A DNA stretch of 64,000 nucleotides from Rhodothermales bacterium (GCA_022822185.1 JAJECE010000079.1:547-64546), one strand, 5' to 3'; counted from the stretch's first letter, positions 36,710 through 64,000 are shown. Notes: a model not told the origin generated them from the sequence alone. Numbers and translations are program-made.

Positions 36710-36794
36710 GCCCGGGTGGCGGAATTGGTAGACGCGACGGACTCAAAATCCGTTGGCCATCGCGGCTGTGTGGGTTCGAGTCCCACCCCGGGTA
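36710..36794 (+). tRNA. tRNA-Leu (anticodon CAA), type II with long variable arm
   Basis: Acceptor stem gcccggg/cccgggt (one G-U pair). Anticodon arm acgga-ctCAAaa-tccgt. Long variable arm. T-arm gtggg-ttcgagt-cccac. Discriminator is A and no CCA is encoded. Confidence 0.9.
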
Positions 36795-37129
36795 CATTCA
36801 TTCCCGCCTCTGTACAGGATTCTGAATAATGTGCAATGGGGAAATTCAAGGGCTGCTAAGTGTTGCATAAGTGGGGATCTGATGTGGGGTTTATTCTTCA
36901 CGAAACCGCGATAGGCGGTTGTGGCAGGGGACTAGTCGGGGTACATTCATGTGCAGGTGCATACATCCGTACAATCCCGAATCAGGGAATTAAAGGGCGA
37001 TATTTTGGCATCCGCCACCGCCTGAAAAATATTTTTACTCTGAAACTCTTTTAATCAAATATTATTTGGTATATTAGGGCATCCGGTTGAGGGTCAACCG
37101 GTTTAACTATAAACAAAGCAAATTTAAAA

Positions 37130-40717: not shown

Positions 40718-40850
40718 GATATCGAACAGATTTTCCGCCGTTCACATGGAACTCAACCGGTTTAAGATCAACCATCTAAAAAGTTATCCCGGATGCCCTC
40801 TACTTCATTGTTTGGCATCAAAATGGGGGGAACCTCCAGTTTTGCGCCCA

Positions 40851-42683: not shown

Positions 42684-42800
42684 TTACCAGAGGCAAAGGC
42701 TTGATGGCAGGTCAAAAAAAAGGCAATCTAAATTCGTTCTATGGGGAACGGCCGACAGGTCAAGGAAGTGTGCACCATGATTCTGTTCCGGGATACTTCG

Positions 42801-48649: not shown

Positions 48650-49078
48650 ATGATCAATACACTATCACTCTCACGTGAACTCACCAAGTCGGGGCTTCAA
48701 CGAGAGCACGCTGAGGCCATTGCAGATGTCGTTGCGAGAGCGGTTGTTCAGCACAACGGGAATCTTGCAACTAAAGAGTTTGTACATACCCGTATTGTTG
48801 AGATACAGAAAGGCACAGATGGTAAAATTGATACTTTACGTGTGGAAGTCGGCGATTTACGTGCGGAAGTCGGCGAGTTGCGTGTGGAAGTCGGCGAGTT
48901 GCGTGTGGCAATCAGTGAGTTACGCAGTGATATGGAGACCCAGATAGCTTCAGTTCGCGTGGAAATCAGTGCTAGCGAGGCACGAATCGTACGCTGGTTA
49001 GTGGGAGTCGCCATAGCTTTAGGCATCTTTGAGGCATTAGGTGATGTCCTGCCCAGCCTGATATCAGGGCTTGGTTAA
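48650..49078 (+). CDS. DUF1640-like coiled-coil protein with a C-terminal membrane anchor
   Basis: LSRELTKSGLQREHAEAIADVVARAV...ATKEF, then heptads VEVGDLR/AEVGELR/VEVGELR/VAISELR, then the hydrophobic tail RWLVGVAIALGIFEALG. Confidence 0.6.
   Translation: MINTLSLSRELTKSGLQREHAEAIADVVARAVVQHNGNLATKEFVHTRIVEIQKGTDGKIDTLRVEVGDLRAEVGELRVEVGELRVAISELRSDMETQIASVRVEISASEARIVRWLVGVAIALGIFEALGDVLPSLISGLG
48842..48925 (+). repeat. Four 21-nt tandem units (two nearly identical) inside 48650-49078
   Basis: The units are gtggaagtcggcgatttacgt / gcggaagtcggcgagttgcgt / gtggaagtcggcgagttgcgt / gtggcaatcagtgagttacgc. Confidence 0.85.
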
Positions 49079-49360: not shown

Positions 49361-51475
49361 TTAGCGGTTTCTCTGTTTGACCACATCCGCGACCAACTCA
49401 CTCTGTTTTCCGTAACTGGCAATAAATAATGATTTGCGAGCCCGGGTACAGGCCACATACAGGAGGGAACGCGCCTTCCGGTAAATTTCTTTCTTTGCCA
49501 TCTCATCCTCTGCCTCTTTGAGTACGCCTTGATGCGGGAGGTAGCGTTTATTTGCACTTGCCACAATCATATGATCGTATTCCAGTCCCTTCACACGGTG
49601 CATTGTAGCGAGCCGGATCCCAGGAATAGATGCACGGTCATTGTTCTTTTTGAGTTGATGGACCTTGATTCCCCGAGCAGTGAGTGCTCCCTCATAACGT
49701 GCCAGTTCGTGCAAGGTTGGGGCAACAAGGCAAATATGATGAAGGTGATCCTCGTTGCATTCCAGACTGTTGATGTACTTGATGATGCCTTCCTGTTCTT
49801 GAATCTGGGTACGGTAGGTTTTTATGATCGGTGGTCTTTCGCCCTGGATCAATGAAGTATATCCCTTCAGCGTATCCCGCTGCCCGTCCATGTCATCGTA
49901 CGGGATCCCCCTCAGAAATCCGATGGCCCAGTTACGTACTCGCTCCGGGGTGCGATAATTAATGCGCAGCCGTCGGCCGCGTCCACGGATATTAATACCA
50001 CAGTGGGATAAAATCACCTTCCGTCCATAAATGCGCTGGTGTGTATCGCCGGCAAGGAGCAGATCATTTTGTCCTTCGGGGAGGATTGCACGGATCATTC
50101 GGAGGGATGCCTGGCTCATGTCCTGTGCTTCATCAACAACCACACTGCAGTAGCCTGGTGGATCGGTCTGGAACTGCTCCACCAGTTGATGTTGAAGATC
50201 ATAGGGGTCTGTAATCCCCTGTCGTTTGAGTTCGTCACGGTAGGCTTCAAAGACCTTCCAGAGTTGCCCGCGAGCGGTTCGCGTTAATCGCTGGCCACGC
50301 CCCCGGCGGGATGCGCGAAGATATTGCTGCAGGGACTGCAATCCGCCTGCTGCAACGACGGCTTCAAATTCATCTCGAATAAAATGCTGAGAATAGGGGA
50401 GGTCATCCATCATATCCATGGCGATCCTCCACGCTTGATTCGCCAGTTCTTTTTCGCGACTGAAATAGGTCATGCGATCCGGCAGACCACGCTTTTTGGC
50501 CTGGATTCTTACCCAGGAATCAATATTGTCCACCTCAATACGCTTGAACACGTCCGGAGCGCACATGCGCCTCAGATTATTGGAAATATCGGAGGCCAGG
50601 TTACTGTTGAATACAAGGAATAAAATCCGGTCACGCTCACCGGTAAAGATCTCACTTGCGAGGTGATGGGCCCGGTGCATGGCAACCACGGTTTTACCAG
50701 TCCCTGCACCTCCGAGTACCCGTATTGGGCCGTTGGCGTGCATTTTGACGATACGTTCCTGAGATGGATGCAGGTAGATTCTCCATTCGGATAGTGGTGC
50801 GTCAATCATTTTCTGGAGATCTTCATCCGTGATCGTCACAAACTGGCGCCTGTTTTCGGGGTGATTCAGTTCATTTTCCTCATCATACTGGCGGGCAAGC
50901 TCGGTGATTTCTTTGAGGATGTCCTCATAGGATGTACCGGAGGCAAGGTCATCCAGCGCAAGCCAGACATCTTCGGGCAGTACATTGGAGTACTCCCCAA
51001 GGTCATGGACGGTTTTAAAACTCCGCACTAAATCCAACTGCGCCTCTGGCACTCCCAGGCGCAGAAGTTGGCGGTCACGGTAGGCAGAGAACAGGGTTTG
51101 CTCCTGTTGTTCTTCCCCGGGCTTATCCTCGGAGGATTCAGAGATCTGGATCGTCTGATAGACCCCCGTGTACTGGTTCTTCTCAAAACGGTGTGTGCGT
51201 GCCCAGGCATAGGCGGCATCATGTACATCCACATGCAGGCAGATGACCCGGTTACTCTCTTTTTCCTGATATGCAATGATGCGATACTTCAAGTCCAGCC
51301 GGATGGAGCGCATCCTGCTGCTGGTAGACAGGACGATCTTCTCAAAATTGAAGCCGCTGGAGTGGGGGTTCGTTTGATAGCGGCTCATGAAACTGAATAC
51401 TTTGGATTTTTGCGCGGTGGGGAGTCTTTCGGCAGCGGCCCAAAAGGTTGATGTCTGCATGAGAGCAACATTCAT
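49361..51475 (-). CDS. SF1 UvrD/Rep-like helicase with an N-terminal RelE/ParE-like domain
   Basis: Walker A LGGAGTGKTVVAMH, motif II VVVDEAQD, and C-terminal ATMHRVKGLEYDHMIV...LLYVACTRARKSL. The first ~100 aa (ERLPTAQKSKVFSFMSRYQTNP...RSIRLDLKYRIIAY...VICLHVDVHDAAY) follow the RelE/ParE toxin-fold pattern. Confidence 0.8.
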   Translation of the reverse strand: MNVALMQTSTFWAAAERLPTAQKSKVFSFMSRYQTNPHSSGFNFEKIVLSTSSRMRSIRLDLKYRIIAYQEKESNRVICLHVDVHDAAYAWARTHRFEKNQYTGVYQTIQISESSEDKPGEEQQEQTLFSAYRDRQLLRLGVPEAQLDLVRSFKTVHDLGEYSNVLPEDVWLALDDLASGTSYEDILKEITELARQYDEENELNHPENRRQFVTITDEDLQKMIDAPLSEWRIYLHPSQERIVKMHANGPIRVLGGAGTGKTVVAMHRAHHLASEIFTGERDRILFLVFNSNLASDISNNLRRMCAPDVFKRIEVDNIDSWVRIQAKKRGLPDRMTYFSREKELANQAWRIAMDMMDDLPYSQHFIRDEFEAVVAAGGLQSLQQYLRASRRGRGQRLTRTARGQLWKVFEAYRDELKRQGITDPYDLQHQLVEQFQTDPPGYCSVVVDEAQDMSQASLRMIRAILPEGQNDLLLAGDTHQRIYGRKVILSHCGINIRGRGRRLRINYRTPERVRNWAIGFLRGIPYDDMDGQRDTLKGYTSLIQGERPPIIKTYRTQIQEQEGIIKYINSLECNEDHLHHICLVAPTLHELARYEGALTARGIKVHQLKKNNDRASIPGIRLATMHRVKGLEYDHMIVASANKRYLPHQGVLKEAEDEMAKKEIYRKARSLLYVACTRARKSLFIASYGKQSELVADVVKQRNR

Positions 51476-54400
51476 TTGTCGAGGAGTTTGAGGATTTCGG
51501 GAATATTGATGGCCGTCAGTTTCTCCAGTTCAAAGCAATTCCATCCGTCACGCTCACACACGGAGCGATCCTCCCAGCATTCTCCATAAAGGAGCGCCAC
51601 GTTCTGCGCGGGCCATGCGATTTCGGCAGTGGTGAGGATCTCGTTAGCGGGATTGGTAATCTCAAAATATATCTCAGGTGCAGGGGCATCATGATCTGCC
51701 AATTTTTCAAGCAGCGGCAGATAGGAGGAATCCAGAACTTCGTCATTCAAAACATTGCTCCATGCGTTTGACCTACCGGGATGGATTTCCTGGATACTCA
51801 GTGCTTCGTAGTGCTCATTCCTTTGAATCCCGGATGCACAGAAAAAGCCAGTGCGGGGATGAATGAACTGGAACAGGTTCATTGCCCGCAGGAATCCATT
51901 CCAGATCGGTTGAAATGTGATCTCGGACTGTGCACGGTCATCGATATAGGCAAAAACCCGCAAAGCGGCAGGATCAATTGTTTCGGAATTGGCGAGATTG
52001 ACGGCGACGCAGCTGGTGTGCAGTTCTTTTTGATCACGGATCCAGTACGCTCCGATACGAGCGCCTTTTCGCATGAAACAGTCCTCCATGAACCATTCCG
52101 GGGCAAGATCGCTGAGCTCGTCCGCGGAGGCGGTCTCAATGACATTCAGTACGGCATGACAGTACGCCAGTGCCTGCCATTTTTCGGGGTCTGGGTCTGT
52201 CAGATATGCTTTTAGGAGATCAAAACTTCCTGCCCCTTTCACGTTGTTCTGCTGTGACAGACTTCCCAGATCTGATTCAAATTTTTTGATAAAACTGTCA
52301 AAATTTCTGAATGCACTGCGCCGGGAGTCAAGCGGGAACAGATCTCCGTTTCGTTCGGGCTCATCCTGTTTGAGGTCATTCCATGTCAGGGACCAGACTA
52401 GGTAGCGTCCGGAAGCCAGAATTGCCATGCGTTTCAGTGTGTCATCCGCGAATTGATCCCGATGATACTCGAAGCCGTCCGTAAAGACGGCAACAGGGAG
52501 CGCGTTCGAGTTGGGGTCCGGTGTGAGCAAAAAATCCGGTTTAGAGGGCACCTGTACGCCTTTACTCCTGTCCAGAAGAACCTGACATTCAACGGTCCAG
52601 ATCTCGTTACCGACTTTGAGTTCGTATAATTTATCGGTGCCGCGGTGGATTGGTGACAGACTGGCTGAGTGCCATTTTTTCAGATGTTCAAGGAACCTCT
52701 GTTCCAGTGCACTGTCTACGAGTGGATGGACAGGAATATCATCCAGGCTTCTAGTCTCATCCAGACCGTCTCCTTTGTTCACAATGCTTTCCAGGATATC
52801 AATAGCAACCTCTCTGGAAATCGCCCCTCTATGGAACGAGTTGCGGTATGCAAAGAGGCATCGATAGCACCCGTCTTTGGCCGGATCCTCTTTGCATCGG
52901 CATTTTTTTAGATCATCCAATGCAGGCCTCAGGACTTTCTCAAGAATTGTTTTGTCTGTGAGGAGATCCCTGAGATGCCCGGTTCCACCTGGCACGGTGT
53001 CGTAGAGATAAATGAATGTACGCCGAATCTCTTCGCCGGGGACCGGTGCATCCTGCGTGATCGTTTGCAGGTGGTTTACCTGACCGCGAAAATGCTCTTT
53101 CAGCCCCATGAAAAGGGCCGCGGAGAATGATTCGGCCTGGAGTCCGGTTTCGGTATGATCTACAACCGGTAAGAGGATGCGGATACATTCGGATTCAAAG
53201 TTATGATACAGAGACAGGGAAACTCTTGGCTCTTTGTCTTTGTCCCGATATCTGCAGTAGTATTCATGGGGAGAAGTCTCATTTTCCAGTTCCACTCTGC
53301 CGCATTCGGTGCAGATACGGAATCCTGCAATGATTTCTTCCTCGCCGGCGATCTTTACCCGGGATCCATCGGAGGATGGATCTCCGTGGTTGATGAAGGT
53401 GAATGCGGCCCCTTGAATAAAGTCAAATCCAAACGGTACCTCGGAATGTCGGGCTTTGTAGGCGATTTTCACATCTTCGGGATCAAATTTTACATGGGTT
53501 CGAATGACAGGGCTGATGTGCTGTCGCTCGTCACGCCGGTCATCAATCCGGTTGTTACTTTCGTGGGAGGTGGATCTGGCGGTGGAGAGGCAGACCAGTT
53601 TTAGTGTCTGTCCCATATCTCCCCATCCATCAGAGTTACATTGCGGACATTTGGCAGTTCGTTCTTCTGACTCGGGTTCATGCCAGGAGCAGTCGGGACA
53701 GAACCGCCAGGTCTGGATGTCATTTTTGTCAAAGCGTATCCCGTTGATGCGAACCTTTTTCCCGTTCGCATAGAAGTAATTCCCAGGGGCGAATTCCCGT
53801 ATGGCCCGCTGACCGGGCCGTTCAAAGGTTTCGGTCAGCGGCTTCTGCTGTTCCTTTTCTTTTCGCTGCAGGATTGTGGAATGCAATTGGACACTGCTCT
53901 GGGGGAAGGCATAGTTCGGAAGGATACCTTCGTCCGAGAGAAAATTGAACACTTCTTTGTCACCGATATGAAATCGGAGGCTTCGCAGTCCGGCCCGGTG
54001 ATTCTGGAGGTCTTTCAGATTCTTTTCATAGTTCTCATCACGCGGTGCATGTTCATAGTCTTTGATCCGTCTGCTCAGGCGCTCAATGCGGTTATGCAAC
54101 TCCCTGCGTTCGGCATACTGCTGAATAAATGCTTCCGTGACTCGATATCTCAGGTTGGTTTTAGAGGAGGCATCCGGGTAGAAGAAGTGAGTCAGAGATT
54201 CAAGCAGTTCCGGTTGCAGGTTGCCAAACAGTTCCTTGAACCCCTGCGCCAGCTCATCAGCATGAGTGGTAACATAATTCAGCCAATTGAACGGGAATTT
54301 CCCATCATCCTCGTTGGCCAGAGAACTGAGAATAATCCTCAAATTATCTGGAACGGCCGCATTTTTTGAATGGGCAACCCACATATCCAGGCTATAGGCG

Positions 54401-57400
54401 GCCATTTGGCGCTCCAGTACGGCAGGTGCTTTTAAGAATACCCCAGGTACAGTCACTTCACCGCTGATCATATCCTGCGGTTCGGCAAAGAAATAGAGGT
54501 CATGGGGCTGATTGGTTGCAACCGCAAATCCAAATGAATTTCCATCTTTCCGCCCGGCCCGTCCGATCCGCTGGACATAATTTGCCTGTGACGGCGGGAT
54601 GCTGCACAGAAATACCGTTGACAGGTCTCCGATATCGATCCCCAGTTCCAGGGTTGGGGTACAGGAGACGATATTCGGATCCCAGGGGTGTCGCTCCTTG
54701 CGCATGAATGTCTTTTCAATCTCTTCCCGATGCCCGGCGGTCAGGAGACCGGTGTGCTCTTTGGGAACGAATCGGCAGACATCCCCGGCCCCGTAGAGTG
54801 CGCGGTAGTAGTCTATATCATGATCCTCTTGAATTTTGAATTGTCCCCGGCATTTGTGGATCATACAGGGCATCGCCTGCCAGATATCGTGATCCTGTGC
54901 AGGGACGCTGACATCATACGAACAGGTTTCACAGGCGAAACGGGTCACTTTTGTGGTAACCGTGAGTTTGTTCGGCGCAACTCCCCAGACGGTGTGCTGA
55001 TTGGCGGAGTACGGCTTGAGGATGCCGGCAGGTGCAGCATCAATGATATCCTTGAGTGCCGCATCAAATCCGGCGGGAGTCAAGTTTTCTTCTGCGACCA
55101 AACATTTATGCCCCCATCCCTGGACCCAGGAGTTGTTTCTGCTCCCTGTGAGGGGAAGAAAGTTTTTCGTAGATTTAGTGGATAAGAAGCCGTGACGCGG
55201 GCTGTTGGGCTTGAATCGGGGTGCCCATTTTTGCTGGAGATAAAGTTTGGTTTTCCCCAGCCCCTGGATATAGTCTTTGAGTGCGGGATGTGCAATGCCG
55301 CCACCGGTTCGGAGTCGATAGAGGAGGCCGGTCAGAAATTGGATCAAGTTCTGTTCTGTGATGGATCCCAGCCCTTCGTGATATTTTCCCCTGATGGCGG
55401 GCAGGATTTTCGCCGTCCAGTTTCTCAGTAGATTCTGATCCACCGAGACGGCGGCGGAGTGGGTGTTTTCGAGGGTGCGTCCTCTGCGGGCACGAAGTCC
55501 GAGGTTGTCAAAGACTTCCCATTTGAGGCGTTCTGCCACGAGGTAGGGCAGATTTGAGTTTTCGGGGAGTGTTCCTCTTTTGACCAGTACTCCATAGTCA
55601 TCCATCCAGTCCATATTGGGCGCAATGAATGTGCCTACAAAGTCTGCATCTCCCAGGTTTTCACGCTGAGATTGCACAAGCCCGTTTGCAATCGCTCCAA
55701 TATTCCGATCTTCATCCAGGTTTTTGAGGTATTGCAGGATTGCTGTTCGGACGCTAAAGGCATACGTCCGGGCCTCAAAGTAGCCCGCGCGGTGCGCAGC
55801 ATCCTGCACGGAGTCGGAGAAGGTCAGGACCTTCTTATCGTCATTGTAACGGGATGAAAAGGTTTGCCCTAACGCTGCGGACAGCAGCGTTGCTCCCCCC
55901 GCACCGAATATGTTCGGCTGATTGGACTCTCCGCAGTGCGGGCATTCAGGCCTTCCATTCTGTCCGAATTTCAGGGAGGGGATATGAACGGGGAGGAGGG
56001 CTTCTTCCGTTGAGCAGTCTGAGCATTTTGTTGCACGGGCATTCTGGGGTTGCAGGCATGCTGGACAGAGGCGCCAGTTTTCCGTGAAGTTTAAGTCTTC
56101 TCCTGGGTAAATGACCTTCAGTTCAGCGGCGGCGGACTTGCTGAAGTAGGTGCGATAGATCTCCTCAAGGTTCGTGATAAAGGGATCGGTATCGGTTTCC
56201 TGCGCCGTCACCCATCCTGCGGTCCCGCACTTGATGCAGGAGGCAAGCGGAAGGTAGTGCGGGGATTCGGTTGAAGCCAGATCGGCATCCCATGCTAATC
56301 GGGGATTCGGATCCACGGAGACGACCATCCTTTTGAGTTCACGCATCCAGAATTGGATTCTTACATCCAGCAGGGGCCGGTCTGCGGTTTTTGGGTCTCG
56401 GGCATGGCTGACCAGAGACAGAAGGCTTTCCAGAAGAAGTTGATGATCCGCGCCTTCTTTCGCATCTTCTTCCCCGGGCAGTCTCCATTGCCCGGCCACT
56501 TCTGTCATTAGCAGGGTATTGGGGCCGACCAGTTGTACTAGGTTCTTAAAGGCACCGTGCTGGTGCAGTTTTTTGCCAAGATCTTGTCTCCATTTAGGCG
56601 TATTGAGCGTCTCTTCGGAAACTTCACCTCCGAACCATGCCTTGTACTGTGCCTGGAGGTAAGCCTCACTGGATTCAAACTGATCTGACCGAAGTAACTC
56701 ATCACTGGTTGGAAACTTAACATACGATGTCTGTAAATCTGTCAGATAATCTCTCGGATCCAGCCGTGCCTCGGTAATGATTGCATCGTCATCAAATTCG
56801 GCATCAAAGATCGTTCTGGCATATTCACGCAGTTTGTTACCGGATCCGGTACCCAGCGTGGCAGACGTTCCAACGGGGCAGATGGTTTTGCACTGAAGGC
56901 GTGTTTTGAGCCTCCGCAAAAGGCACGCCAGATCGGTTCCCTGCGCTCCGTCAAACGTATGGAGTTCATCCACGACCACATAGCGCAGGGTATCTGGATG
57001 GTTCTTCTCCCAGAGGGGTTTATCCTTTGGCCGGATCAGGAGATAATCCAGCATCTTGTAATTGGTCAGCAGCAGATCAGGAGGCGATTCGCGCAGCTTA
57101 TGCCGATCTGAAATGATATTGGACTCGGTCATACGGGAGTGAGAACTTGCACCGAGTCCACCGACATAAAGGCCTGCGGTAACCACTGCTTTGAGGCTGG
57201 GGGTCTGGAAGATGAGTCTTGCAATCCGCTTGGCCTGATCTGCCGCAAGTGCATTCATCGGGTAGATGAGGATTGCCTTGATCCCGGACTGCCCGGCGGT
57301 CTGCCGGCAGTAGTCCAGAATTGGAAGCAGGAAGGACTCGGTTTTCCCGGACCCGGTGCCGGTCGCCACGATCGTCGGTTTGGGCGGGTCCGCGCCCAGC

Positions 57401-57648
57401 CGCTCAAATGCACGCGTCTGATGCAGGTAGGGGGGAAAGCCCAGTGGGATTTCCGGGAAGGGCTCTTCGTTCGAGGTGCTTTTCACGAACGGGAGCTGGA
57501 AGGACAGATAGCTTCCCCGGATGGCTTCTTTGTTCCTGATGAACTGATCCAGCGCCTGCGCGAGTGCCGGCGTGGTAATCCGGTAGCGTGTCCGCAGGAA
57601 ATCCTGGATGGTTTCGTGGACTTCCCGTCCCACAACGGAAGGAATCAT
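51472..57648 (-). CDS. Giant DEAD/DEAH helicase + DUF1998 (MrfA-type Zn) + Vsr/DUF559-like endonuclease fusion (DrmA+DrmB-like or DruE-like)
   Basis: VATGTGSGKTESF (Walker A, aa 94-106), VVVDELHTF, LTFSDSVQDAAHRAG, TLELGIDIGDL, QRIGRAGR. DUF1998 signature YLYDTVPGGTGHL and GCYRCLFAYRN. Then PDFLLTP...LPVAVFTDGFEYHRD...LKRMAILASGRYLVWSLTWNDL. ATGA overlaps at both ends. Confidence 0.85.
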   Translation of the reverse strand: MIPSVVGREVHETIQDFLRTRYRITTPALAQALDQFIRNKEAIRGSYLSFQLPFVKSTSNEEPFPEIPLGFPPYLHQTRAFERLGADPPKPTIVATGTGSGKTESFLLPILDYCRQTAGQSGIKAILIYPMNALAADQAKRIARLIFQTPSLKAVVTAGLYVGGLGASSHSRMTESNIISDRHKLRESPPDLLLTNYKMLDYLLIRPKDKPLWEKNHPDTLRYVVVDELHTFDGAQGTDLACLLRRLKTRLQCKTICPVGTSATLGTGSGNKLREYARTIFDAEFDDDAIITEARLDPRDYLTDLQTSYVKFPTSDELLRSDQFESSEAYLQAQYKAWFGGEVSEETLNTPKWRQDLGKKLHQHGAFKNLVQLVGPNTLLMTEVAGQWRLPGEEDAKEGADHQLLLESLLSLVSHARDPKTADRPLLDVRIQFWMRELKRMVVSVDPNPRLAWDADLASTESPHYLPLASCIKCGTAGWVTAQETDTDPFITNLEEIYRTYFSKSAAAELKVIYPGEDLNFTENWRLCPACLQPQNARATKCSDCSTEEALLPVHIPSLKFGQNGRPECPHCGESNQPNIFGAGGATLLSAALGQTFSSRYNDDKKVLTFSDSVQDAAHRAGYFEARTYAFSVRTAILQYLKNLDEDRNIGAIANGLVQSQRENLGDADFVGTFIAPNMDWMDDYGVLVKRGTLPENSNLPYLVAERLKWEVFDNLGLRARRGRTLENTHSAAVSVDQNLLRNWTAKILPAIRGKYHEGLGSITEQNLIQFLTGLLYRLRTGGGIAHPALKDYIQGLGKTKLYLQQKWAPRFKPNSPRHGFLSTKSTKNFLPLTGSRNNSWVQGWGHKCLVAEENLTPAGFDAALKDIIDAAPAGILKPYSANQHTVWGVAPNKLTVTTKVTRFACETCSYDVSVPAQDHDIWQAMPCMIHKCRGQFKIQEDHDIDYYRALYGAGDVCRFVPKEHTGLLTAGHREEIEKTFMRKERHPWDPNIVSCTPTLELGIDIGDLSTVFLCSIPPSQANYVQRIGRAGRKDGNSFGFAVATNQPHDLYFFAEPQDMISGEVTVPGVFLKAPAVLERQMAAYSLDMWVAHSKNAAVPDNLRIILSSLANEDDGKFPFNWLNYVTTHADELAQGFKELFGNLQPELLESLTHFFYPDASSKTNLRYRVTEAFIQQYAERRELHNRIERLSRRIKDYEHAPRDENYEKNLKDLQNHRAGLRSLRFHIGDKEVFNFLSDEGILPNYAFPQSSVQLHSTILQRKEKEQQKPLTETFERPGQRAIREFAPGNYFYANGKKVRINGIRFDKNDIQTWRFCPDCSWHEPESEERTAKCPQCNSDGWGDMGQTLKLVCLSTARSTSHESNNRIDDRRDERQHISPVIRTHVKFDPEDVKIAYKARHSEVPFGFDFIQGAAFTFINHGDPSSDGSRVKIAGEEEIIAGFRICTECGRVELENETSPHEYYCRYRDKDKEPRVSLSLYHNFESECIRILLPVVDHTETGLQAESFSAALFMGLKEHFRGQVNHLQTITQDAPVPGEEIRRTFIYLYDTVPGGTGHLRDLLTDKTILEKVLRPALDDLKKCRCKEDPAKDGCYRCLFAYRNSFHRGAISREVAIDILESIVNKGDGLDETRSLDDIPVHPLVDSALEQRFLEHLKKWHSASLSPIHRGTDKLYELKVGNEIWTVECQVLLDRSKGVQVPSKPDFLLTPDPNSNALPVAVFTDGFEYHRDQFADDTLKRMAILASGRYLVWSLTWNDLKQDEPERNGDLFPLDSRRSAFRNFDSFIKKFESDLGSLSQQNNVKGAGSFDLLKAYLTDPDPEKWQALAYCHAVLNVIETASADELSDLAPEWFMEDCFMRKGARIGAYWIRDQKELHTSCVAVNLANSETIDPAALRVFAYIDDRAQSEITFQPIWNGFLRAMNLFQFIHPRTGFFCASGIQRNEHYEALSIQEIHPGRSNAWSNVLNDEVLDSSYLPLLEKLADHDAPAPEIYFEITNPANEILTTAEIAWPAQNVALLYGECWEDRSVCERDGWNCFELEKLTAINIPEILKLLDK

Positions 57649-60600
57649 AGCCGGTTCTCCCGTTTTGCTTTTTCAAAGAACGCCCATGCTTCGCGGTAAT
57701 CTTCTTCGCGGTCGCACTTGTCAAACGGGGCATGGAACTCTATCGTCCGCTCTCTGGGTCCGCCCGGCAGCGTATCATCCATAAACGTATGGGTAACGAT
57801 GCCTTCGGTCATATCTTTGATGTCGTTCCATCCGAGGGGGATGCCTGTTACCGAGCTTGTGGGGGTATGAATTCCGAATGAATTCTTTTTGCCGGATTTG
57901 GTGCGCGGGATGGGGCTTTGTCCGGTTTTCTTGGAGAACACAATACGCCCCCGGGTATCATAGTACGTTTCATTCTCGTAGGATTGCAGGATGGGGAACT
58001 GGATCCGGTAGAGGGTGAGGAGTTCTTCGAGGGTGAGGCCGAGTTCCAGAGCGTGCAGGGTGTCAATTTCGATGAGTGCCTGCCGCCGCGCATAATCGGT
58101 GCGGAGCGGACTGTGCCATGACCAGGGAGACTCCAGTCTGCCAAACCACTCCGCATCCAGCCGCGGATCCTGCCGGGACCAGGGAAGCGGCCTGCGCTGT
58201 GTCATTTCCGGGGTGCAGGCATCCCATAGAGTGCGGTAGTCGGTGGTCAGGCACGAAAGCCCCAGGATCCTTGCAGTGGCCGCCGGGGAAGCGTTTGAGA
58301 ATGGAAGTCCGGCAAAGAAAATTGGATGTAAGTCTGATTTAGTACCGATTTTTACCGCCATATCCGTCACGACCGAGAGAACCGTAAAAAGCATACTGAT
58401 CAGATTTTTCATATTCTTCATGGCTACGCTACCCACCGAATCAATATGTCCTGTTCCCGGCGGAACGAGTGCGGGAATCAACGTCCGTTCACTTCCAGGT
58501 CCCAATCTTTTCCGCATGGCCACCCGGTACTCGTCGGTTACGCGGGTCCCCCAGAGCGTGGTGGGGGTTCTGCGGGTATAGAGTTCCGGGGCACATGCCC
58601 GCACATAGTTGGTTCGCGGGAGGTAGGTTTCGGGGAGCGTGGTCAAATCAATCCTTGAATAATCACTGTTCGTCTTGCATCCTTCGTTCGGGGTCTGAAA
58701 AAATGGGGTTCCGACAAAGATATGCGGTCCGGAGAGGATCCAGCCGGCGGCCTCGTCGGGGAAGCCGGTCTGCCGGCGGATCGTGCCCTTTTTCTGTGCC
58801 CCTGTTTCGTGCCACATTGCGGTCATTTTATAATCCAGATCCCGCATTCGTCGCGGGGCCTGTGCGAGTTTCTGGAGGATGCCGGCCAGCTGCCGCGCGT
58901 GTACGAGGGGGAGCCGGGCCTGGCGGGGCGGGGTTCCGGGGGCATCGTAGAGCAGGGCGTAGGTCTGCAGTTCTTTTTTGGTGACCCGGATCACGCGGTG
59001 CCGGTGTTCGGACAGCTCCCACTGGTTGCCCTTGGTTTTGATTCCCGGCACCGGCCCGAGGCCGTCGTGCTTCAGGGACTTGATGGCGGTCAGCGGTGAA
59101 TATAGGTTCGCCATGGAGATGAAGACAATCTCATCTTTCTTCTGTCCGTAGATATTGATGCTGAATTTAACCCGCGTATCCACCTCTTCAAACAGATGCA
59201 GCACATTTTCAAACTGCAATCGGTAGCGGAGTCGTGGATAGAGAACTTCCCGGAGTGTTTGTCCCCGCGCTTCATCATAGACGGAGTCGGGATGCAGGAG
59301 GCCAACGGCGCCGCGGCTGACGGCCCAGCTGGTGCAGAGGAACGCTTTGTAGAGATTGGTCTGCATCCCTTTGAGGAGCGGATAGTTCTGCATTGCATTG
59401 AGGAAGGAGAGCTGTCCGCCGACGGCTTCATAGGCCGACAAATAATACTCCCGGCGGCCGGGCCGCTCCAGCCATGCGCCCCGGAGTTTGGCCGTTCGGG
59501 ATGCACTCAGTTTCTTGGTGACGAAGCGGGGTTCGGTGTCGCCGATAATATGTTTTTCGATGAAGTCCGGCTTGCGCCAGGGCGGGTTTCCCAGCACCAC
59601 ATCAAAGCCGCCGTGCTGTTTGAACTGATCGGCGTACTCCAGCTGCCAGTGATGAAACCGGTGCTGGCGGGCCAGTTTCTGGACCAACTGCAGCCGCGGC
59701 CGTGCGGCAATGAGGGAGTTTATATCGACAAAGCCCAGTGCATCCCGCTCGGCATCTTCGCTGAAGAGTGCATAGGTTTCGGCGGCGTGTTTGCCGGCCA
59801 GAATCTCGGCGAGATCGCCGAGGTATTCTTCGCGGTGAGGCAGGAGGGGGGCCTGATCGATGGGCCAGTACCAGAGGGCGCACCAGTAGTCCATGACGAG
59901 TTTAAGCCGCTGGTAGGCACTGATATTGCCGTTTTCTGGCGTGAGGATCCGCTGGAAGTGGGCTTGTTTGGTGCGTGTGGAGGAGATGCCGGAGGTAGGC
60001 AGGGCGGCACCGGTCCCTTGCTGCACGGATGGATGGCCGGTTCTGGTGCCTGCTTCGCCCTCCCCATGAGGCCCGTCTTGCACAGGAATTCCGCCTCGCG
60101 CATCCATCCCGCCTTGCGTATCGATCCCACTTTGTGGGTAGATGGGAAAGGGATCGGTGGTGACTTCTTCCAGCCGGATCAGGTCCCGGATATGCTGTTC
60201 CCAGAGACGGTCCACGATGGCGGCGAGCGTGATCAGTTGCTTTGTCTCGACTTCGGTGATCGGCTTTGTGAAGGTTTTCCGCCATGCGGCGATCTGCCGG
60301 ATGGCCTCCCCGGCCAGTTGTCGGACGACTTTGTCTTTGTACATGGCCATTCCGGGATCGCCGACCAGGAAGTGGTAGACCTTGTCTTCGGGGTACGCTT
60401 CCTGCATCCCGGAGATGACGGCCTGCACAAAGGAGTCGCCGCTGCGGGCCTGCTCGTGGAAGGGCAGATCGGCGGGCGGCTTCTCCCACCATTTGCCCTG
60501 CTGCAGCACTTTGCAGGAGTAGACGCGCCGCCAGGCGCCCACGAGCGAGTTGCCGCACTTGAGCTGATTGCCGAACCACGGCACGAACCCGCCTTCGACC

Positions 60601-62525
60601 AGCGTATTGAGCCAGATGGAAATTTCGCCCAGTTCCACGGCGACCGGGTTCAGGTCTACGCCGTAGACATTGTTGTCGGCAAAGTACATTTTGACGCGCT
60701 GCAGTTCGGTCTTCCACCGTTCCGGCGGCAGCACCTCGCCCCGCTCCCGGGTTTTCCGGGTCAGATAGGCTTCGGCGAGCTGCGAGACAGCTTCATTCAG
60801 AAAGGCCGCCGATCCCATGGCGGGCTCGCAGACGGTGATCTGCAGGATCTCGTCCGCGGGCTTGCCCTCCAGGACTTCGTTCAGTGCGAATCGGGTGACG
60901 CACCGGGTCAGGCTTTCGGGCGTGTAGTAGGAGGCGGATTCTTCGCGGGCGCGTCCGGTGAGGCGGTAGATGAAGGTGCCTTTGGGGTGGCTGCGCAGGG
61001 TTCCGTCGGGATTGGTGACCCGCTCGCTCATCTCATAGTGCTTTTCCAGAGCATCCTGATTCACGAAGTAGGCGGCATCCAGCACGTCGGGCGTTGTCTT
61101 TGCGGGCTTGACTTCATACAGGTGTTCGGTCGCAATAAAGCCGCGGTAGCTTAAGAGCGCCTCGTAGACGGCTCCCAGGTGGTTTACACTCAGATGCCGG
61201 TACGAGATGCGTCCGCGCCCCTGCCACTTTCCTTTTTTCTTTTTCTGAAAGTCCTCATGCCCGAGCGACATCATCTGCAGGATCCGCTGCCAGCTCTGGT
61301 TTGTGATCCGGATTGCATTCAGGCGCGGGGTCTTCTCGGGGTCAAAGAGGTCGCACTGCAGGGGGGAGATGGCAAAGGTGTGGACCCCTTCCTGCAGCAC
61401 CTCCTGCTGCGTTCCCTGCTCGTCATAGCCTTCATAGACGAGTTCAAAGAGCATCTTCAGGGACTCATCAAAGAAGCTCCCTTCGGCGCTCCCGTTCTCG
61501 TGGAGCGAGACCAGTTCCAGGTCCCGCAGTTTTTCCAGGCTGTAGCCGCTGCGGTAGGCTTCGGCGTTCATGGGCAGGTACCCCAGTTCTTTCCGCGCTT
61601 CCACATTGAACAGGAAAAGCAGCCGGTACATGTAGTACAGGCATTCCAGCGTCAGTTCGTCCACGAACGCATCCGTATACGGTCCGTGCCAGTTTTTCCG
61701 GGCCCGCATAGACGACAGATACTCATTGCCGAGGATTTCAATGGATTCGCGGAGGGCGTATTTGAGACTGCCGGACACGCCGGTGGCGTGCCGGAGGGCA
61801 TGCTCCTGGAGTTCCTCTTGATAGGAGGGCCCGGTGCCGGGACACAAGGTGGATTTATGGAGGAGCATGGTGAGCAGTTTCCAGGTCTCAATGCGGGGCA
61901 GCTGTTCATAGAGTCCATCCCAGTCAAAGCGCAGCATGCGTCCGGCACCCCATTTGTCCCGCTCCAGAAGCACCCAGGTCTGGAGTCCGGTGAGCAGGAT
62001 CCAGCGGGGCGGGGTCTGGATGGAAAAGGCTTTGGTGATCAGGCGCTGGAAGGATTCGCTTTGTTCCGGTGGAACAAGGGACAGCAGTTCTTCACCGCTG
62101 CCGTCTGCATCTGCTGCTTCGACGATCCACATGTAGGGTTTTTGGAAGGCGTCCAGCTGTGTCAGAACCTGCAGGTGCATGCCGGCATCCAGTTCAATCC
62201 GTTCAGGACTGCGCGGATAGCCCAGCAGATAAAGCAGGCGGCGGGTCCATGTTTGCTGGATGGCCGCCCGCTCCGATGCAGGTGCGCTGCGAAATTGCTC
62301 CCGCGCAGTCAGATAGTCCGTGCCCAGTGCTTTGAGGGGGATCCAGGGCCGGGCCTCCGCCTCTTCGGAGCCCCCGTGTCTAGACACCTCGAATTCCTCC
62401 GCCTTCCAGCGCTTCTCGAAGTCTTTGATGGACTCCGGCAGGATGGCATGCCAGTAATGGTCGGGGTAAAACTCGTTCTGGTTGACGAGTCCGGTGAAGT
62501 TAAATTCCATGAGATGATTCGGCAA
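57645..62525 (-). CDS. Large gamma-class N6-adenine DNA methyltransferase (Eco57I/PglX/DrmMI-like)
   Basis: Motif I ITVCEPAMGSAAFLNEA (60801-60830). YGVDLNPVAVELGEISIWL. FHHWQLEYADQF...GGFDVVLGNPPW (NPPW at 59577-59588). The listed start at 62525 is TTG. An ATG at 62510 (MEFNFTGL) is likelier. Confidence 0.85.
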   Translation of the reverse strand: MPNHLMEFNFTGLVNQNEFYPDHYWHAILPESIKDFEKRWKAEEFEVSRHGGSEEAEARPWIPLKALGTDYLTAREQFRSAPASERAAIQQTWTRRLLYLLGYPRSPERIELDAGMHLQVLTQLDAFQKPYMWIVEAADADGSGEELLSLVPPEQSESFQRLITKAFSIQTPPRWILLTGLQTWVLLERDKWGAGRMLRFDWDGLYEQLPRIETWKLLTMLLHKSTLCPGTGPSYQEELQEHALRHATGVSGSLKYALRESIEILGNEYLSSMRARKNWHGPYTDAFVDELTLECLYYMYRLLFLFNVEARKELGYLPMNAEAYRSGYSLEKLRDLELVSLHENGSAEGSFFDESLKMLFELVYEGYDEQGTQQEVLQEGVHTFAISPLQCDLFDPEKTPRLNAIRITNQSWQRILQMMSLGHEDFQKKKKGKWQGRGRISYRHLSVNHLGAVYEALLSYRGFIATEHLYEVKPAKTTPDVLDAAYFVNQDALEKHYEMSERVTNPDGTLRSHPKGTFIYRLTGRAREESASYYTPESLTRCVTRFALNEVLEGKPADEILQITVCEPAMGSAAFLNEAVSQLAEAYLTRKTRERGEVLPPERWKTELQRVKMYFADNNVYGVDLNPVAVELGEISIWLNTLVEGGFVPWFGNQLKCGNSLVGAWRRVYSCKVLQQGKWWEKPPADLPFHEQARSGDSFVQAVISGMQEAYPEDKVYHFLVGDPGMAMYKDKVVRQLAGEAIRQIAAWRKTFTKPITEVETKQLITLAAIVDRLWEQHIRDLIRLEEVTTDPFPIYPQSGIDTQGGMDARGGIPVQDGPHGEGEAGTRTGHPSVQQGTGAALPTSGISSTRTKQAHFQRILTPENGNISAYQRLKLVMDYWCALWYWPIDQAPLLPHREEYLGDLAEILAGKHAAETYALFSEDAERDALGFVDINSLIAARPRLQLVQKLARQHRFHHWQLEYADQFKQHGGFDVVLGNPPWRKPDFIEKHIIGDTEPRFVTKKLSASRTAKLRGAWLERPGRREYYLSAYEAVGGQLSFLNAMQNYPLLKGMQTNLYKAFLCTSWAVSRGAVGLLHPDSVYDEARGQTLREVLYPRLRYRLQFENVLHLFEEVDTRVKFSINIYGQKKDEIVFISMANLYSPLTAIKSLKHDGLGPVPGIKTKGNQWELSEHRHRVIRVTKKELQTYALLYDAPGTPPRQARLPLVHARQLAGILQKLAQAPRRMRDLDYKMTAMWHETGAQKKGTIRRQTGFPDEAAGWILSGPHIFVGTPFFQTPNEGCKTNSDYSRIDLTTLPETYLPRTNYVRACAPELYTRRTPTTLWGTRVTDEYRVAMRKRLGPGSERTLIPALVPPGTGHIDSVGSVAMKNMKNLISMLFTVLSVVTDMAVKIGTKSDLHPIFFAGLPFSNASPAATARILGLSCLTTDYRTLWDACTPEMTQRRPLPWSRQDPRLDAEWFGRLESPWSWHSPLRTDYARRQALIEIDTLHALELGLTLEELLTLYRIQFPILQSYENETYYDTRGRIVFSKKTGQSPIPRTKSGKKNSFGIHTPTSSVTGIPLGWNDIKDMTEGIVTHTFMDDTLPGGPRERTIEFHAPFDKCDREEDYREAWAFFEKAKRENRL

Positions 62526-64000
62526 TCAGGACGGCAGAGACATGGATGTAGGGCTCCGCTTCCATGGTCATGGAGGTTTGAATCCAAAGCCGGAACTCCT
62601 CAAACCGCCGCCGGATTTTTTCCAGTTCCTTCTGCCTGCGGGAAAACTGCACCTGCGCAATCCCGCGCTCCGGCTGAAAGGTCTCTTCGATGTAGGTCTG
62701 CTGGCGGTGTTCAAGCTCGCGCAGATCCTCCAGGTGCTGATTCAGGGAACGCGTCAGGTCATCCTGGAACCGGGTTCGATCCTGAAGGGCATGCGCTTTT
62801 GCGCGGTCCACGGCATCCGGGACCCGCTGCTGTGCAATCTCCAGCAGATCCGAGGTGTTGTGTCCCTGATTGGGGAGTTTGTCGGAGCGGAGGACCGGGT
62901 GGAGTTCCGAGTCTTCAAACCGGCGGATCTCAAAGGAACCAGGGGGCCCGGATCTACGGCCGGTCATCAGGTACCACCGCTGAAAGACGGTCACGCCCTT
63001 GCGGTTGGGCCAGAGCACGGTAATCAGATAGGAGAACGTGTCCGGGGTCATGGAGGAAAGCCAGATGGCGGGGGCTTCCAGGCGCTTGAAGGACAGGCGG
63101 ATCTTGTCGGTCATCCACTCCGTGAACGGGTGGACAGGCCACAGGAACTGGAGCTCCGGCCAGGTATGCTCAAAGGCGCGGCACCGCGCAATGGATTTCA
63201 TCACGGCCGCTGGATCCGAAGAGAGGACAAAGCGGCTCCCTTTCGGGCGCACCGCGACCGGCAGCTGGTTCACGACACTTTTCAGCACGGTCTGTCCCTG
63301 CTTATTTTGGGGGGCCACAATGATGCGCTGATTTTCGTCCGAGCAGGTGATGTCCAACTGTGCGCCGATCTGTCGGGCCCAGTTCTGCCGGATATAATTC
63401 AGGGCGGCCTTCGAGTAGGCGTAGTCGGTTTCAAAGAGGGAGGGGAGTTCGCCGGTCTCCGACTCTTCAGCGACAATTAGATTTGGGGGAGGATTTAGAA
63501 GGGCGGCAAGCGGATCAAAGTCCGGGTCGTCCTCCGGGTTGCGGCTGCGGGCCGTAAGCCGTTTTTCGGCCTCCTCCACAGTCAACTTCTCCTCCATGGC
63601 CCCGGCGGTGAGTTTTTCCTCTTCCTCAATCTGATAGACCCCCATCAGGGTCGCGGGATCGCCAAGATTCTTTTCCGCCTGCTGTTCTTTCTCAATGAGC
63701 AGTTCCAGGATCCGCGCATCCCCCTTGAATTTTTCATTCCCGCTGTCGGTGATCAGATAGACAATCTGAGGATTGCGCTTCTGTCCATAGCGGTCAATCC
63801 GCCCGTTGCGCTGCTGGAAGCGCATCAAAGACCACGGAATATCAAAGTGGATCAGCCGGCGGCAGTGATAGTGCAGGTTAATCCCCTCGGAGCCGACATC
63901 CGTGGAGATCAGAAGGCGCACCGGAGACTGATCCTGTCCGAACCGGTCCACGACCTCCTGCTGCTGCACATCGGAGAGCGTGCCGTGGAGAATGTCCACG
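62500..64000 (-). CDS. SNF2-family helicase, C-terminal part (5' end lies beyond the window)
   Basis: The reading frame is open to the window edge. Helicase motif V LISTDVGSEGINL and motif VI QQRNGRIDRYGQ, followed by a ~400-aa C-terminal extension. Confidence 0.8.
   Translation of the reverse strand, partial: VDILHGTLSDVQQQEVVDRFGQDQSPVRLLISTDVGSEGINLHYHCRRLIHFDIPWSLMRFQQRNGRIDRYGQKRNPQIVYLITDSGNEKFKGDARILELLIEKEQQAEKNLGDPATLMGVYQIEEEEKLTAGAMEEKLTVEEAEKRLTARSRNPEDDPDFDPLAALLNPPPNLIVAEESETGELPSLFETDYAYSKAALNYIRQNWARQIGAQLDITCSDENQRIIVAPQNKQGQTVLKSVVNQLPVAVRPKGSRFVLSSDPAAVMKSIARCRAFEHTWPELQFLWPVHPFTEWMTDKIRLSFKRLEAPAIWLSSMTPDTFSYLITVLWPNRKGVTVFQRWYLMTGRRSGPPGSFEIRRFEDSELHPVLRSDKLPNQGHNTSDLLEIAQQRVPDAVDRAKAHALQDRTRFQDDLTRSLNQHLEDLRELEHRQQTYIEETFQPERGIAQVQFSRRQKELEKIRRRFEEFRLWIQTSMTMEAEPYIHVSAVLIAESSHGI

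Follow-up and report, generated by a model that had tools for sequence, protein, structure and literature searches.

The DNA analysed here, a 64,000-nucleotide window from an uncultured Rhodothermales bacterium, carries an operon that we assign, with a probability of about 0.92, to the ARMADA type II anti-phage defence systems (armA-armB-armC-armD). Type II is indicated by gene order, by the occurrence of ArmD and by full-length similarity to E. coli ArmC; judged by these sequences, ARMADA type I would be ruled out by gene order and ArmD presence only. ARMADA stands for disARM-related Antiviral Defense Array, and its type II, namely armA-armB-armC-armD, has been named and found to defend E. 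coli (Bell et al., bioRxiv 2025, PMC12458937). It was independently confirmed in EHEC EDL933 by authors who report that DefenseFinder predicted the system (mBio 2026, PMC13463889), and the systems described are those of E. coli NCTC 12900, ATCC 8739 and EDL933 OI-172 (PMC12458937, PMC13463889). The operon is a Rhodothermales copy of a known system, and the kind of system is not new. The original prediction had taken the architecture to be non-canonical or uncatalogued, which fails because all four proteins fall in ARMADA II with exactly this architecture; the same order and domains already bear that name (PMC12458937). It had also offered two readings, a divergent DISARM or a distinct methylation-linked system built from the same parts, and it is the second that stands.

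The operon consists of four long minus-strand ORFs whose successive stop and start codons overlap, as had been predicted, namely: ATGA at 51472-51475 and 57645-57648 (read straight from the sequence), and 11 nt between the armA stop codon (62500-62502) and the armB start. The genes are translationally coupled and lie on a single strand in the order armA-armB-armC-armD, with armA as the operon's first gene. The portion of the operon past 64000 was taken from an ENA metagenome contig (L001), which represents the window's own DNA (1 mismatch in 16,356 bases compared). A methyltransferase of 1626 aa with an 11-26 nt overlap had been proposed, and such a longer ORF does run from a TTG (57645-62525, minus strand). 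The methyltransferase and the overlap are confirmed, but translation most likely begins at the ATG at 62510, for a product of 1621 aa and an overlap of 11 nt, because the exact 1621-aa product is the called gene on the ENA contig and the 1626-aa TTG product is absent from the record. Around the operon lie genes for an ImmA/IrrE protein, a small coiled-coil protein and an HATPase_c protein; on the contig, the gene upstream is a divergent HTH-ImmA/IrrE gene. The window shows neither an integrase nor an att site. By homology, the four ORFs are real genes and not chance ORFs, because thousands of full-length homologues exist for each (at least 8000 for ArmC).

Table 1. Coordinates of the four genes and their principal domains and motifs (window positions unless stated).
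Feature	Position	Strand	Description
armD	49361..51475	-	704 aa, UvrD/GajB-like helicase with RelE-like N-terminus
armD N-terminal RelE/YoeB-fold domain	51140..51475	-	~residues 1-112; AlphaFold2 model, pLDDT 82.7
armC	51472..57648	-	2058-aa YprA-family (DruE-like) DEAD/DEAH helicase
armC putative Vsr-type (PD-(D/E)xK) nuclease-like domain	52354..52743	-	residues 1636-1765
armC MZB / DUF1998 zinc-binding domain	52855..53124	-	residues 1509-1598; Pfam MZB 2.7e-12
armC RecA1 / DEAD domain	56851..57423	-	Pfam DEAD 6.1e-20
armB	57645..62510	-	1621-aa PglX-like / YeeA-related N6-adenine DNA methyltransferase; most likely start
armB catalytic motif NPPW	59577..59588	-	N975 = E. coli ArmB N971
Gly-rich low-complexity insert in ArmB	59967..60143	-	~residues 790-848, lineage-specific
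armB SAM-binding motif CEPAMGSAAF	60801..60830	-	from residue 561; G566 = E. coli ArmB G605
armA, 3' part only	62500..64000	-	C-terminal 499 of 949 aa, SNF2 / BrxHII-RapA-like helicase
armA, full gene	L001 1500-4349		949 aa as called; 5' part beyond window end

In the published system, ArmA is a BrxHII/RapA-like SNF2 helicase, ArmB a PglX-like methyltransferase and ArmC a YprA/DruE-like helicase whose C-terminus holds a Vsr-type nuclease with predicted activity, and a 'strict gene order' of BrxHII/SNF2, PglX-like MTase, YprA-like helicase and GajB-like helicase is kept on one strand (PMC12458937). On sequence comparison, the four window proteins are full-length orthologues of E. coli ArmA-D at 36-43% identity, namely: 43% over 947 aa for ArmA (705 bits), 42% end to end for ArmB (1172 bits), 36% over 2110 columns for ArmC, aligned from residue 1 (1255 bits), and 38% over 707 columns for ArmD (475 bits). 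In E. coli, the four genes jointly protect against a subset of phages and each gene is needed (PMC12458937, PMC13463889). Defence also needs the ATPase motifs and the NPPW motif of the methyltransferase, and is lost in ArmB N971A (PMC12458937). The protection is direct and not by abortive infection, with infected cells remaining intact and metabolically normal. Among the eight residues mutated there, i.e. ArmA K136/D236, ArmB G605/N971, ArmC K110/D234 and ArmD K266/D454 (PMC12458937), six mutations abolish defence, while ArmB G605A and ArmD D454N reduce it. All eight are kept in the window, as K116/D216, G566/N975, K102/D227 and K261/D448, respectively. At the reference E. coli locus (L082), the eight residues lie at exactly the published positions, and the context is also as published, with Zorya II, Druantia III and the four-gene array beside tRNA-Phe.

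ArmA carries a Walker A motif GLGKT (K116), DEVQ (D216), STDVGSEGINL and QQRNGRIDR, and Pfam finds Helicase_C in the part inside the window. Pfam identifies Eco57I and N6_Mtase in ArmB and no nuclease domain. The SAM-binding motif of ArmB is kept in 39 orthologues. Its Gly-rich insert falls in a gap of the E. coli ArmB alignment and is unconserved among these orthologues. Each motif quoted in the original prediction was located, including CEPAMGSAAF at 561 and NPPW at 975 in ArmB and GCYRC at 1593 in ArmC.

ArmC contains several CxxC zinc modules, an OB-CON-DUF1998 module and a C-terminal nuclease-like region, and Pfam places DEAD, Helicase_C and MZB (formerly DUF1998) in this one 2058-aa ORF. 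A fused DrmA/DrmB-like helicase resembling DruE had been foreseen and is what we find: the PADLOC matches are DruE1 (1.7e-115), DruE3 (2.1e-102) and DrmA (2.8e-15). The Walker A lysine K102 and D227 of the DELH motif, together with the MZB cysteines (C1583, C1585 and those of GCYRC), are invariant in alignment A1. Within the nuclease-like domain, E1649, D1705, D1724, G1725, H1729, D1736 and D1758 are invariant in 42 orthologues and also in alignment A1, and the domain is modelled confidently (pLDDT 86). These invariant acidic and histidine residues suit the predicted nuclease-like domain; hhalign places D1705/D1724/H1729 on Vsr D51/H64/H69 at a probability of 23% only, and Foldseek (E<=0.001), Pfam and a PDB profile search of the domain gave no match. 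The Vsr-type label for the ArmC C-terminus comes from the ARMADA study (PMC12458937). A conserved HxKxxxxD (PLD) motif is absent from all four proteins, as is any PLD domain, in line with the prediction that a PLD-type DrmC is missing; the lone HVKFDPED at ArmC 1385 occupies a column that is not conserved.

The core of ArmD is recognized by Pfam as UvrD-helicase and UvrD_C, and by PADLOC as GajB and NERD+UvrD. The N-terminus of this additional SF1 helicase had been predicted to be toxin-like, and a Foldseek search with a model of residues 1-230 agrees, the best matches being the RelE and YoeB toxins (probability 1.00, target TM-scores 0.67-0.77). E45, R59, Y64, R65 and H85 are invariant in this domain, and E45, R59, R65 and H85 echo YoeB E46, R65 and H83. 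Several ArmD homologues are annotated by JGI as 'helicase/mRNA-degrading endonuclease RelE'.

The four-gene order was examined in 80 genomes found through ArmC. ArmD comes after ArmC in 74 of the 76 loci where this could be tested, ArmB comes before it in 53/65, and ArmA is present in 40/51. The loci come from Rhodothermales, Desulfobacterota, Lachnospiraceae, Cyanobacteria, Acidobacteriota, Bacillaceae and Enterobacteriaceae, and the armA-D order is conserved across many phyla. Related loci often carry other defence systems at the armB-armC junction, an observation that may merit follow-up.

Two close Rhodothermales relatives (L003 and L004) lack armD, and one has a shortened armC, so that even this clade does not carry all four genes throughout. 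These losses, together with the lineage-specific low-complexity insert of ArmB, could suggest that the window holds a decaying ARMADA II relic that no longer works in its host. We consider this very unlikely, since none of the four overlapping reading frames is interrupted, all catalytic motifs are kept, the insert sits in a non-conserved linker, and a population variant (L002, P0001) at 94-97% identity has the genes intact.

Less probable still is a stand-alone Type IIG restriction-modification methyltransferase beside unrelated helicase genes, which is what PADLOC v2 would report. Most of ArmB does match REase_MTase_IIG (PDLC03614; 7.4e-236), and an (E/D)RxKW element is conserved in the N-terminal region of the protein. 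However, the PADLOC model was evidently built with ArmB-type sequences included, nuclease activity of ArmB is undocumented, and neither the overlap of the four genes, nor their order across phyla, nor the need for all four in E. coli defence fits an isolated methyltransferase.

A strongly divergent class 1 DISARM, with drmD-drmMI and a fused drmA/B, is hardly tenable. The SNF2, adenine methyltransferase and DUF1998 helicase parts are indeed those expected of class 1 DISARM by Pfam and PADLOC, as had been predicted: DrmD is the best match of ArmA in PADLOC (4.7e-32) and NCBIfam (4e-36), ArmB matches DrmMI (7.7e-46), ArmC holds the helicase and DUF1998 content of DrmA and DrmB, and ARMADA itself is termed 'DISARM-related' (PMC12458937). 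Nevertheless, the NCBIfam DISARM_DrmD equivalog reaches 124.7 bits against a cut-off of 610, with the 499-aa window fragment covering profile positions 537-683 only; no NCBIfam DrmMI model reaches threshold, and DISARM profile scores are far under their cut-offs. The DrmA match of ArmC is likewise far behind that of DruE. Separate adjacent drmA and drmB genes were not found, a single ORF taking their place, whereas the DrmA/DrmB split characterises DISARM (PMC12458937). A PLD DrmC is absent throughout the operon, which has no gene beyond these four, ArmD has no DISARM counterpart (PMC13463889), and the published YprA tree groups ARMADA with Druantia and not with DISARM (PMC12458937).

Equally implausible is Druantia, be it type III or a novel type that pairs DruE with other genes: DruE1 and DruE3 are the best PADLOC matches of the giant helicase, but PADLOC v2.0.0 (2023) is older than ARMADA, so DruE is the nearest model on offer; no DruH, DruA-D or DruM/F/G homologue accompanies it, the partners being SNF2, MTase and UvrD proteins; the DruE of the co-resident E. 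coli Druantia III gives local matches only (121 bits), while the ArmC encoded in that island aligns over the whole length; and type III DruE carries PLD-type nuclease domains (PMC12458937), as opposed to the Vsr-like motif set of ArmC.

For the operon as ARMADA type II, we propose the following mechanism. ArmB, as a PglX-like adenine methyltransferase, would mark a host-specific DNA motif; the main text of PMC12458937 makes no mention of methylation. By analogy with PglX in BREX, ArmB may also help to recognise the target; its loss abolishes defence and does not cause cell death. Like DrmAB, DruE and MrfA, ArmC is a YprA-type translocase, and it would load on unmodified invading DNA or on single-stranded replication intermediates, and would then track along the DNA, cutting with its predicted C-terminal Vsr-type nuclease. 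The SNF2/RapA-like motor ArmA and the UvrD/GajB-like motor ArmD could remodel or unwind the target or strip its proteins, and the RelE/YoeB-fold domain of ArmD, with its YoeB-like invariant residues, may add RNA cleavage, or sense, or dock. A bolder proposal, which we regard as doubtful, is that this domain is a catalytically competent RNase. The methylation-guided attack of ArmC on DNA would then be joined, in ARMADA II, by a helicase-coupled cleavage of RNA or one directed at the ribosome, and this second arm would be invisible in the published 'non-abortive' phenotype. Separately, and with the same doubt, the armB-armC junction may be a conserved docking site that carries and co-expresses other defence systems.

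Compared to E. coli ARMADA II, the window operon keeps all four genes and their order, on a single strand, with lengths within 3% (949/952, 1621/1642, 2058/2113 and 704/704 aa). Both have the RelE-like N-terminus of ArmD, the DUF1998 module of ArmC and a putative C-terminal nuclease region with a Vsr-like motif set. The host differs, being an uncultured Rhodothermales bacterium as opposed to Enterobacteriaceae for the E. coli-type system. In addition, the window operon is without a neighbouring Druantia III or Zorya II, its genes are more tightly coupled, its ArmB has the extra Gly-rich insert of about 60 aa, and its ArmC is 55 aa shorter.

The operon and class 1 DISARM both line up, in one relative order, an SNF2 helicase, a large N6-adenine methyltransferase and a helicase of the YprA family together with a DUF1998 module. 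The nuclease of the operon, however, is putatively Vsr-type and fused, whereas DISARM has the separate PLD protein DrmC, and the operon has an extra UvrD/RelE protein. An EVE-like or trigger-loop region has been described in DrmA (PMC12458937). Druantia III, too, is built on a giant YprA-family helicase (about 2100 aa) that bears zinc modules, DUF1998 and, at its C-terminus, a nuclease (putative in ArmC); the published YprA tree places its DruE as the sister lineage to ArmC (PMC12458937). Unlike Druantia III, the window system is without DruH, has a putative Vsr-type in place of a PLD nuclease, and adds a methyltransferase and SNF2 and UvrD helicases. Finally, ArmB is PglX-like, ArmA BrxHII/RapA-like and the helicase core of ArmD GajB-like, but the operon is without BrxA, BrxB, BrxC, BrxL, PglZ and GajA; the likeness to BREX and Gabija is one of shared modules and not of system membership.

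The four long minus-strand reading frames at the right end of the window were recovered by ORF listing, and direct reading of the sequence shows stop and start codons overlapping as ATGA at 51472-51475 and 57645-57648. The motifs quoted in the original prediction are all found in the sequence, and its domain assignments match the Pfam domain calls. The operon is real and had been read accurately. The methyltransferase gene does overlap the SNF2 gene, but the predicted product of 1626 aa and overlap of 11-26 nt most likely become 1621 aa and 11 nt. Its start is likely the ATG at 62510, since the 1621-aa product is that of a gene called on a metagenome contig in ENA (L001; ERZ23491617 scaffold_2684), while no record was found for the 1626-aa TTG product. 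This contig differs from the window by 1 mismatch in 16,356 bases and reaches past position 64000; in it, the SNF2 gene stands first in the operon and codes for 949 aa.

Coordinates of the operon, its surroundings and features of related loci (L numbers)
Feature	Sequence	Coordinates	Strand	Remarks
armA	window	62500-63999	-	SNF2; continues past window end
armB	window	57645-62525	-	MTase; 1626 aa if TTG start
ArmB Gly/Thr/Gln-rich low-complexity insert	window	59967-60143	-	residues ~790-848
armC	window	51472-57648	-	giant helicase; 2058 aa
armD	window	49361-51475	-	UvrD-like; 704 aa
Small coiled-coil protein	window	48650-49078	+	142 aa; after HATPase_c gene
HATPase_c (GHKL ATPase) protein	window	46078-48069	+	663 aa; N-terminal match only
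Three tandem ankyrin-repeat genes	window	38795-45236	-	640, 610, 811 aa; ~10+ Ank units each
tRNA-Leu	window	36710-36795		
HTH-ImmA/IrrE gene	L001	3-914	-	beyond window; ~600 bp upstream of armA, divergent
armA-armB-armC	L003	16189-22000		no armD within 10 kb downstream
armA-armB-armC	L004	15820-22000		no armD within 10 kb downstream
Gabija GajA+GajB	L012	6819-9958		armB-armC junction
Gabija GajA+GajB	L074	4289-10004		armB-armC junction
AbiEi+AbiEii	L031	4992-9985		armB-armC junction
GmrSD	L080	8066-9964		armB-armC junction
SMODS+patatin	L079	7523-10004		armB-armC junction
SIR2	L057	9109-9972		armB-armC junction
AAA_15/21 ATPase+HNH	L050	7898-9981		armB-armC junction
Schlafen-AlbA	L011	8183-9904		armB-armC junction
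DUF3800	L006	7444-8319		armB-armC junction

A full-text search led to the anti-phage system ARMADA type II (Bell et al., bioRxiv 15 Sep 2025, PMC12458937), in which armA to armD follow a 'strict gene order'. ArmA is a BrxHII/RapA-like SNF2 helicase, ArmB a PglX-like methyltransferase and ArmC a YprA-like DEAD/DEAH helicase described as Druantia-like (PMC12458937). Besides an OB-CON-DUF1998 module and modules that bind zinc, ArmC has at its C-terminus a Vsr-type nuclease, which is predicted to be active and after which inactive EEP and Vsr domains often follow (PMC12458937). ArmD, which is 'almost always' present, is a GajB-like UvrD helicase with a RelE-like domain fused to its N-terminus (PMC12458937). 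The system of E. coli NCTC 12900 protects against 13 of 80 phages; defence is abolished by deletion of any gene as well as by Walker-motif and NPPW mutations, and is considered non-abortive because infected cells remain intact (PMC12458937). In an independent study of EHEC EDL933 (mBio 2026), armA-D were all required, the system having been predicted by DefenseFinder, as the authors state (PMC13463889).

When the window operon was compared by megablast with genomes and plasmids of E. coli, no usable match was obtained. A syntenic relative in Enterobacter wuhouensis (L069) provided the connection to E. coli: its DNA is 84.5% identical to a locus that 528 of 5426 complete E. coli genomes carry. 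In the reference copy of that locus (L082, NZ_CP042903.1), Zorya II and Druantia III (DruH and DruE) are accompanied by four genes, with products of 952, 1642, 2113 and 704 aa, that lie next to an integrase and tRNA-Phe; the same island layout is published for ARMADA II (PMC12458937). The L082 proteins carry all eight published mutated residues at the exact positions (8/8), and L082 is therefore the published system. These residues, each followed in brackets by its window equivalent, are: ArmA K136 (K116) and D236 (D216); ArmB G605 (G566) and N971 (N975); ArmC K110 (K102) and D234 (D227); and ArmD K266 (K261) and D454 (D448). All are conserved in the window. The window proteins align with those of L082 from end to end, with identities of 43% for ArmA (705 bits), 42% for ArmB (1172 bits), 36% over 2110 columns for ArmC (1255 bits) and 38% for ArmD (475 bits), the last being 704 aa long in both. 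As judged from these sequence comparisons, the window operon is a Rhodothermales member of ARMADA type II, a described system that has been validated experimentally in E. coli.

Full-length homologues of the giant helicase, ~2100 aa in size, number at least 8000. An alignment of such proteins was scanned against one genome per GTDB species, which yielded 80 loci from at least 587 hits, and synteny was scored by tblastn with the four window proteins as queries. The four-gene order that was to be looked for in other genomes is kept across this set, usually as SNF2, MTase, giant helicase and UvrD-like genes on a single strand. Of 76 loci with sufficient flanking sequence, 74 have the UvrD-like gene after the helicase; the MTase lies before the helicase in 53 of 65, and an SNF2 gene was found in 40 of 51. 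Carriers include Rhodothermales, Desulfobacterota, Lachnospiraceae, Cyanobacteria, Acidobacteriota, Halobacillus, Anoxybacillus, Thioalkalivibrio, Mangrovibacter and Enterobacter; given this span, the cassette is ancient, widespread and mobile, and no local oddity. Within the window's own clade, one Rhodothermales locus (L002) is 94% identical. The closest non-identical Rhodothermales relatives, L003 and L004, have no armD in the flank covered, and ArmC of L004 is cut to 1939 aa; three-gene or decaying variants thus occur within this clade.

The first of the C-terminal domains of ArmC (residues 1636-1765) has E1649, D1705, D1724, G1725, H1729, D1736 and D1758 invariant among 42 orthologues. 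An hhalign comparison with E. coli Vsr, at a probability of only 23%, places SKPDF...VFTDGFEYH on GRPDF...IFTHGCFWH and ArmC D1705/D1724/H1729 on Vsr D51/H64/H69. The region is consistent in sequence with the Vsr feature of ArmC. The last 442 residues were modelled confidently (pLDDT 86.2); a Foldseek search of this model against the PDB returned 0 matches at E<=0.001, probably owing to the three small domains in the query. Neither Pfam (E<=10, isolated C-terminal domains; nothing relevant) nor a search of PDB sequences with a profile built from 42 Vsr-like domains gave a match. Many ArmC homologues resemble the window protein only up to about residue 1760, where the Vsr-like domain ends, and ~1 kb of unmatched sequence precedes armD (for example L031, L041, L044-L046, L049-L051, L056, L057, L061, L063, L064, L067 and L075). 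The post-Vsr region thus differs between lineages by sequence, in agreement with the report that the extra domains are 'often but not invariably' present (PMC12458937).

The toxin-like N-terminus predicted for the UvrD-like helicase is borne out by an AlphaFold2 model of ArmD residues 1-230 (27 homologues; pLDDT 82.7), whose best PDB matches by Foldseek are the RelE and YoeB toxins 2khe, 1wmi, 7v5y, 3g5o and 3bpq (probability 1.00, target TM-scores 0.67-0.77, ~87 columns). The family is invariant at E45, R59, Y64, R65 and H85, and hhalign against E. coli YoeB, itself insignificant (E=0.37), places E45 on catalytic E46 and R65 on R65. A Pfam search at E<=10 with the ArmD N-terminus alone gave nothing relevant. 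The low-complexity insert of ArmB is missing from E. coli ArmB and unconserved among 39 orthologues, and is probably a disordered linker. In the N-terminal region of ArmB (residues ~168-187), a PR...L(E/D)RxKW element conserved in 39 orthologues recalls, by analogy, the nuclease-like domains at the N-terminus of Type IIG/IIL enzymes.

In about 25 of the 80 loci related to the operon, armB and armC are separated by 1-10 kb of additional genes, most of which share their strand; one of these loci (L033) has only a split armB. The window operon has no insert there. The annotated inserts are known defence modules (see table). From these sequences, the junction resembles a hotspot where defence cargo is embedded, a point absent from the main text of PMC12458937.

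Housekeeping genes (carotenoid synthesis, TamA/TamB, MlaD) lie to the left of tRNA-Leu. Between it and the operon are an alpha/beta hydrolase gene, the ankyrin-repeat genes, whose large products are unusual for a free-living bacterium, and the HATPase_c and coiled-coil genes. The latter two are directly 3′ of armD and convergent with it, and may be a further component of the defence island. Neither an integrase nor a repeat of the tRNA-Leu 3′ end (a possible att site) was found in the window, and mobility of this copy is thus not established. Scans for sigma-70 promoters and terminators gave no excess over shuffled controls. The GC content is 0.59 for armA and armB (57645-64000) and ~0.52 for armC, armD (49361-57648) and the flanks; the operon may be a mosaic, or different constraints may act on its two halves. 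Beyond the window, the HTH-ImmA/IrrE gene, truncated at the contig end, encodes a Peptidase_M78 with a HELAH motif and an N-terminus that is HTH-like by eye, and may regulate the island or act as its sensor. In L060, too, there is an M78-like gene, which lies inside the operon.

ARMADA II in E. coli acts directly and non-abortively, and needs all four proteins as well as the ATPase and MTase motifs in them (PMC12458937). By analogy with PglX, ArmB probably marks self DNA and shares in recognition, while ArmC, like DrmAB, DruE and MrfA, would translocate on invading or single-stranded DNA, which its Vsr-type domain would then probably cut; ArmA and ArmD are probably accessory motors. No evidence on ARMADA methylation or its target was found in the main text of PMC12458937.

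That the window copy is a decaying relic of ARMADA II is unlikely, since every frame and motif is intact. The operon had been proposed to be a strongly divergent class 1 DISARM, and PADLOC-DB v2.0.0 (2023) does match the SNF2 fragment to DrmD (4.7e-32), the MTase to DrmMI (7.7e-46) and the giant helicase, at just 2.8e-15, to DrmA. We reject this reading: the defining split DrmA/DrmB is absent, the conserved PLD motif of DrmC occurs in none of the four proteins, as predicted, and profile scores fail, with no protein reaching its curated NCBIfam cut-off (DISARM_DrmD, 124.7 bits vs. 610). Druantia, suggested by a DruE match of 1.7e-115 for the giant helicase, is likewise rejected, as neither the partner genes nor the nuclease type fit and full-length similarity is wanting; DruE from the E. 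coli island of L082 gives no more than a local match to the window helicase (121 bits). A stand-alone Type IIG enzyme, the best match of ArmB (57645-62510; REase_MTase_IIG, PDLC03614, 7.4e-236), is contradicted by the four overlapping genes, their conserved linkage and the E. coli genetics.

Taken together, ARMADA II is present in Rhodothermales with its catalytic residues all intact, and the related loci place the same cassette in Cyanobacteria, Firmicutes, Acidobacteriota, Desulfobacterota and other phyla, a diversity of orthologues useful for mechanistic and structural work. The locus alone raises no new question. Taken alone, PADLOC, which also calls ArmD GajB or NERD+UvrD, and NCBIfam make the operon look like an unclassified hybrid, as it was originally read, and the E. 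coli orthologues bear only generic RefSeq product names. Given the PDLC03614 match, pipelines of that date would mislabel ARMADA II as Type IIG restriction-modification plus an orphan DruE. PADLOC-DB v2.0.0 breaks the locus into 'DruE', 'Type IIG RM', 'DrmD' and 'GajB', for which the correct annotation label is ARMADA type II.
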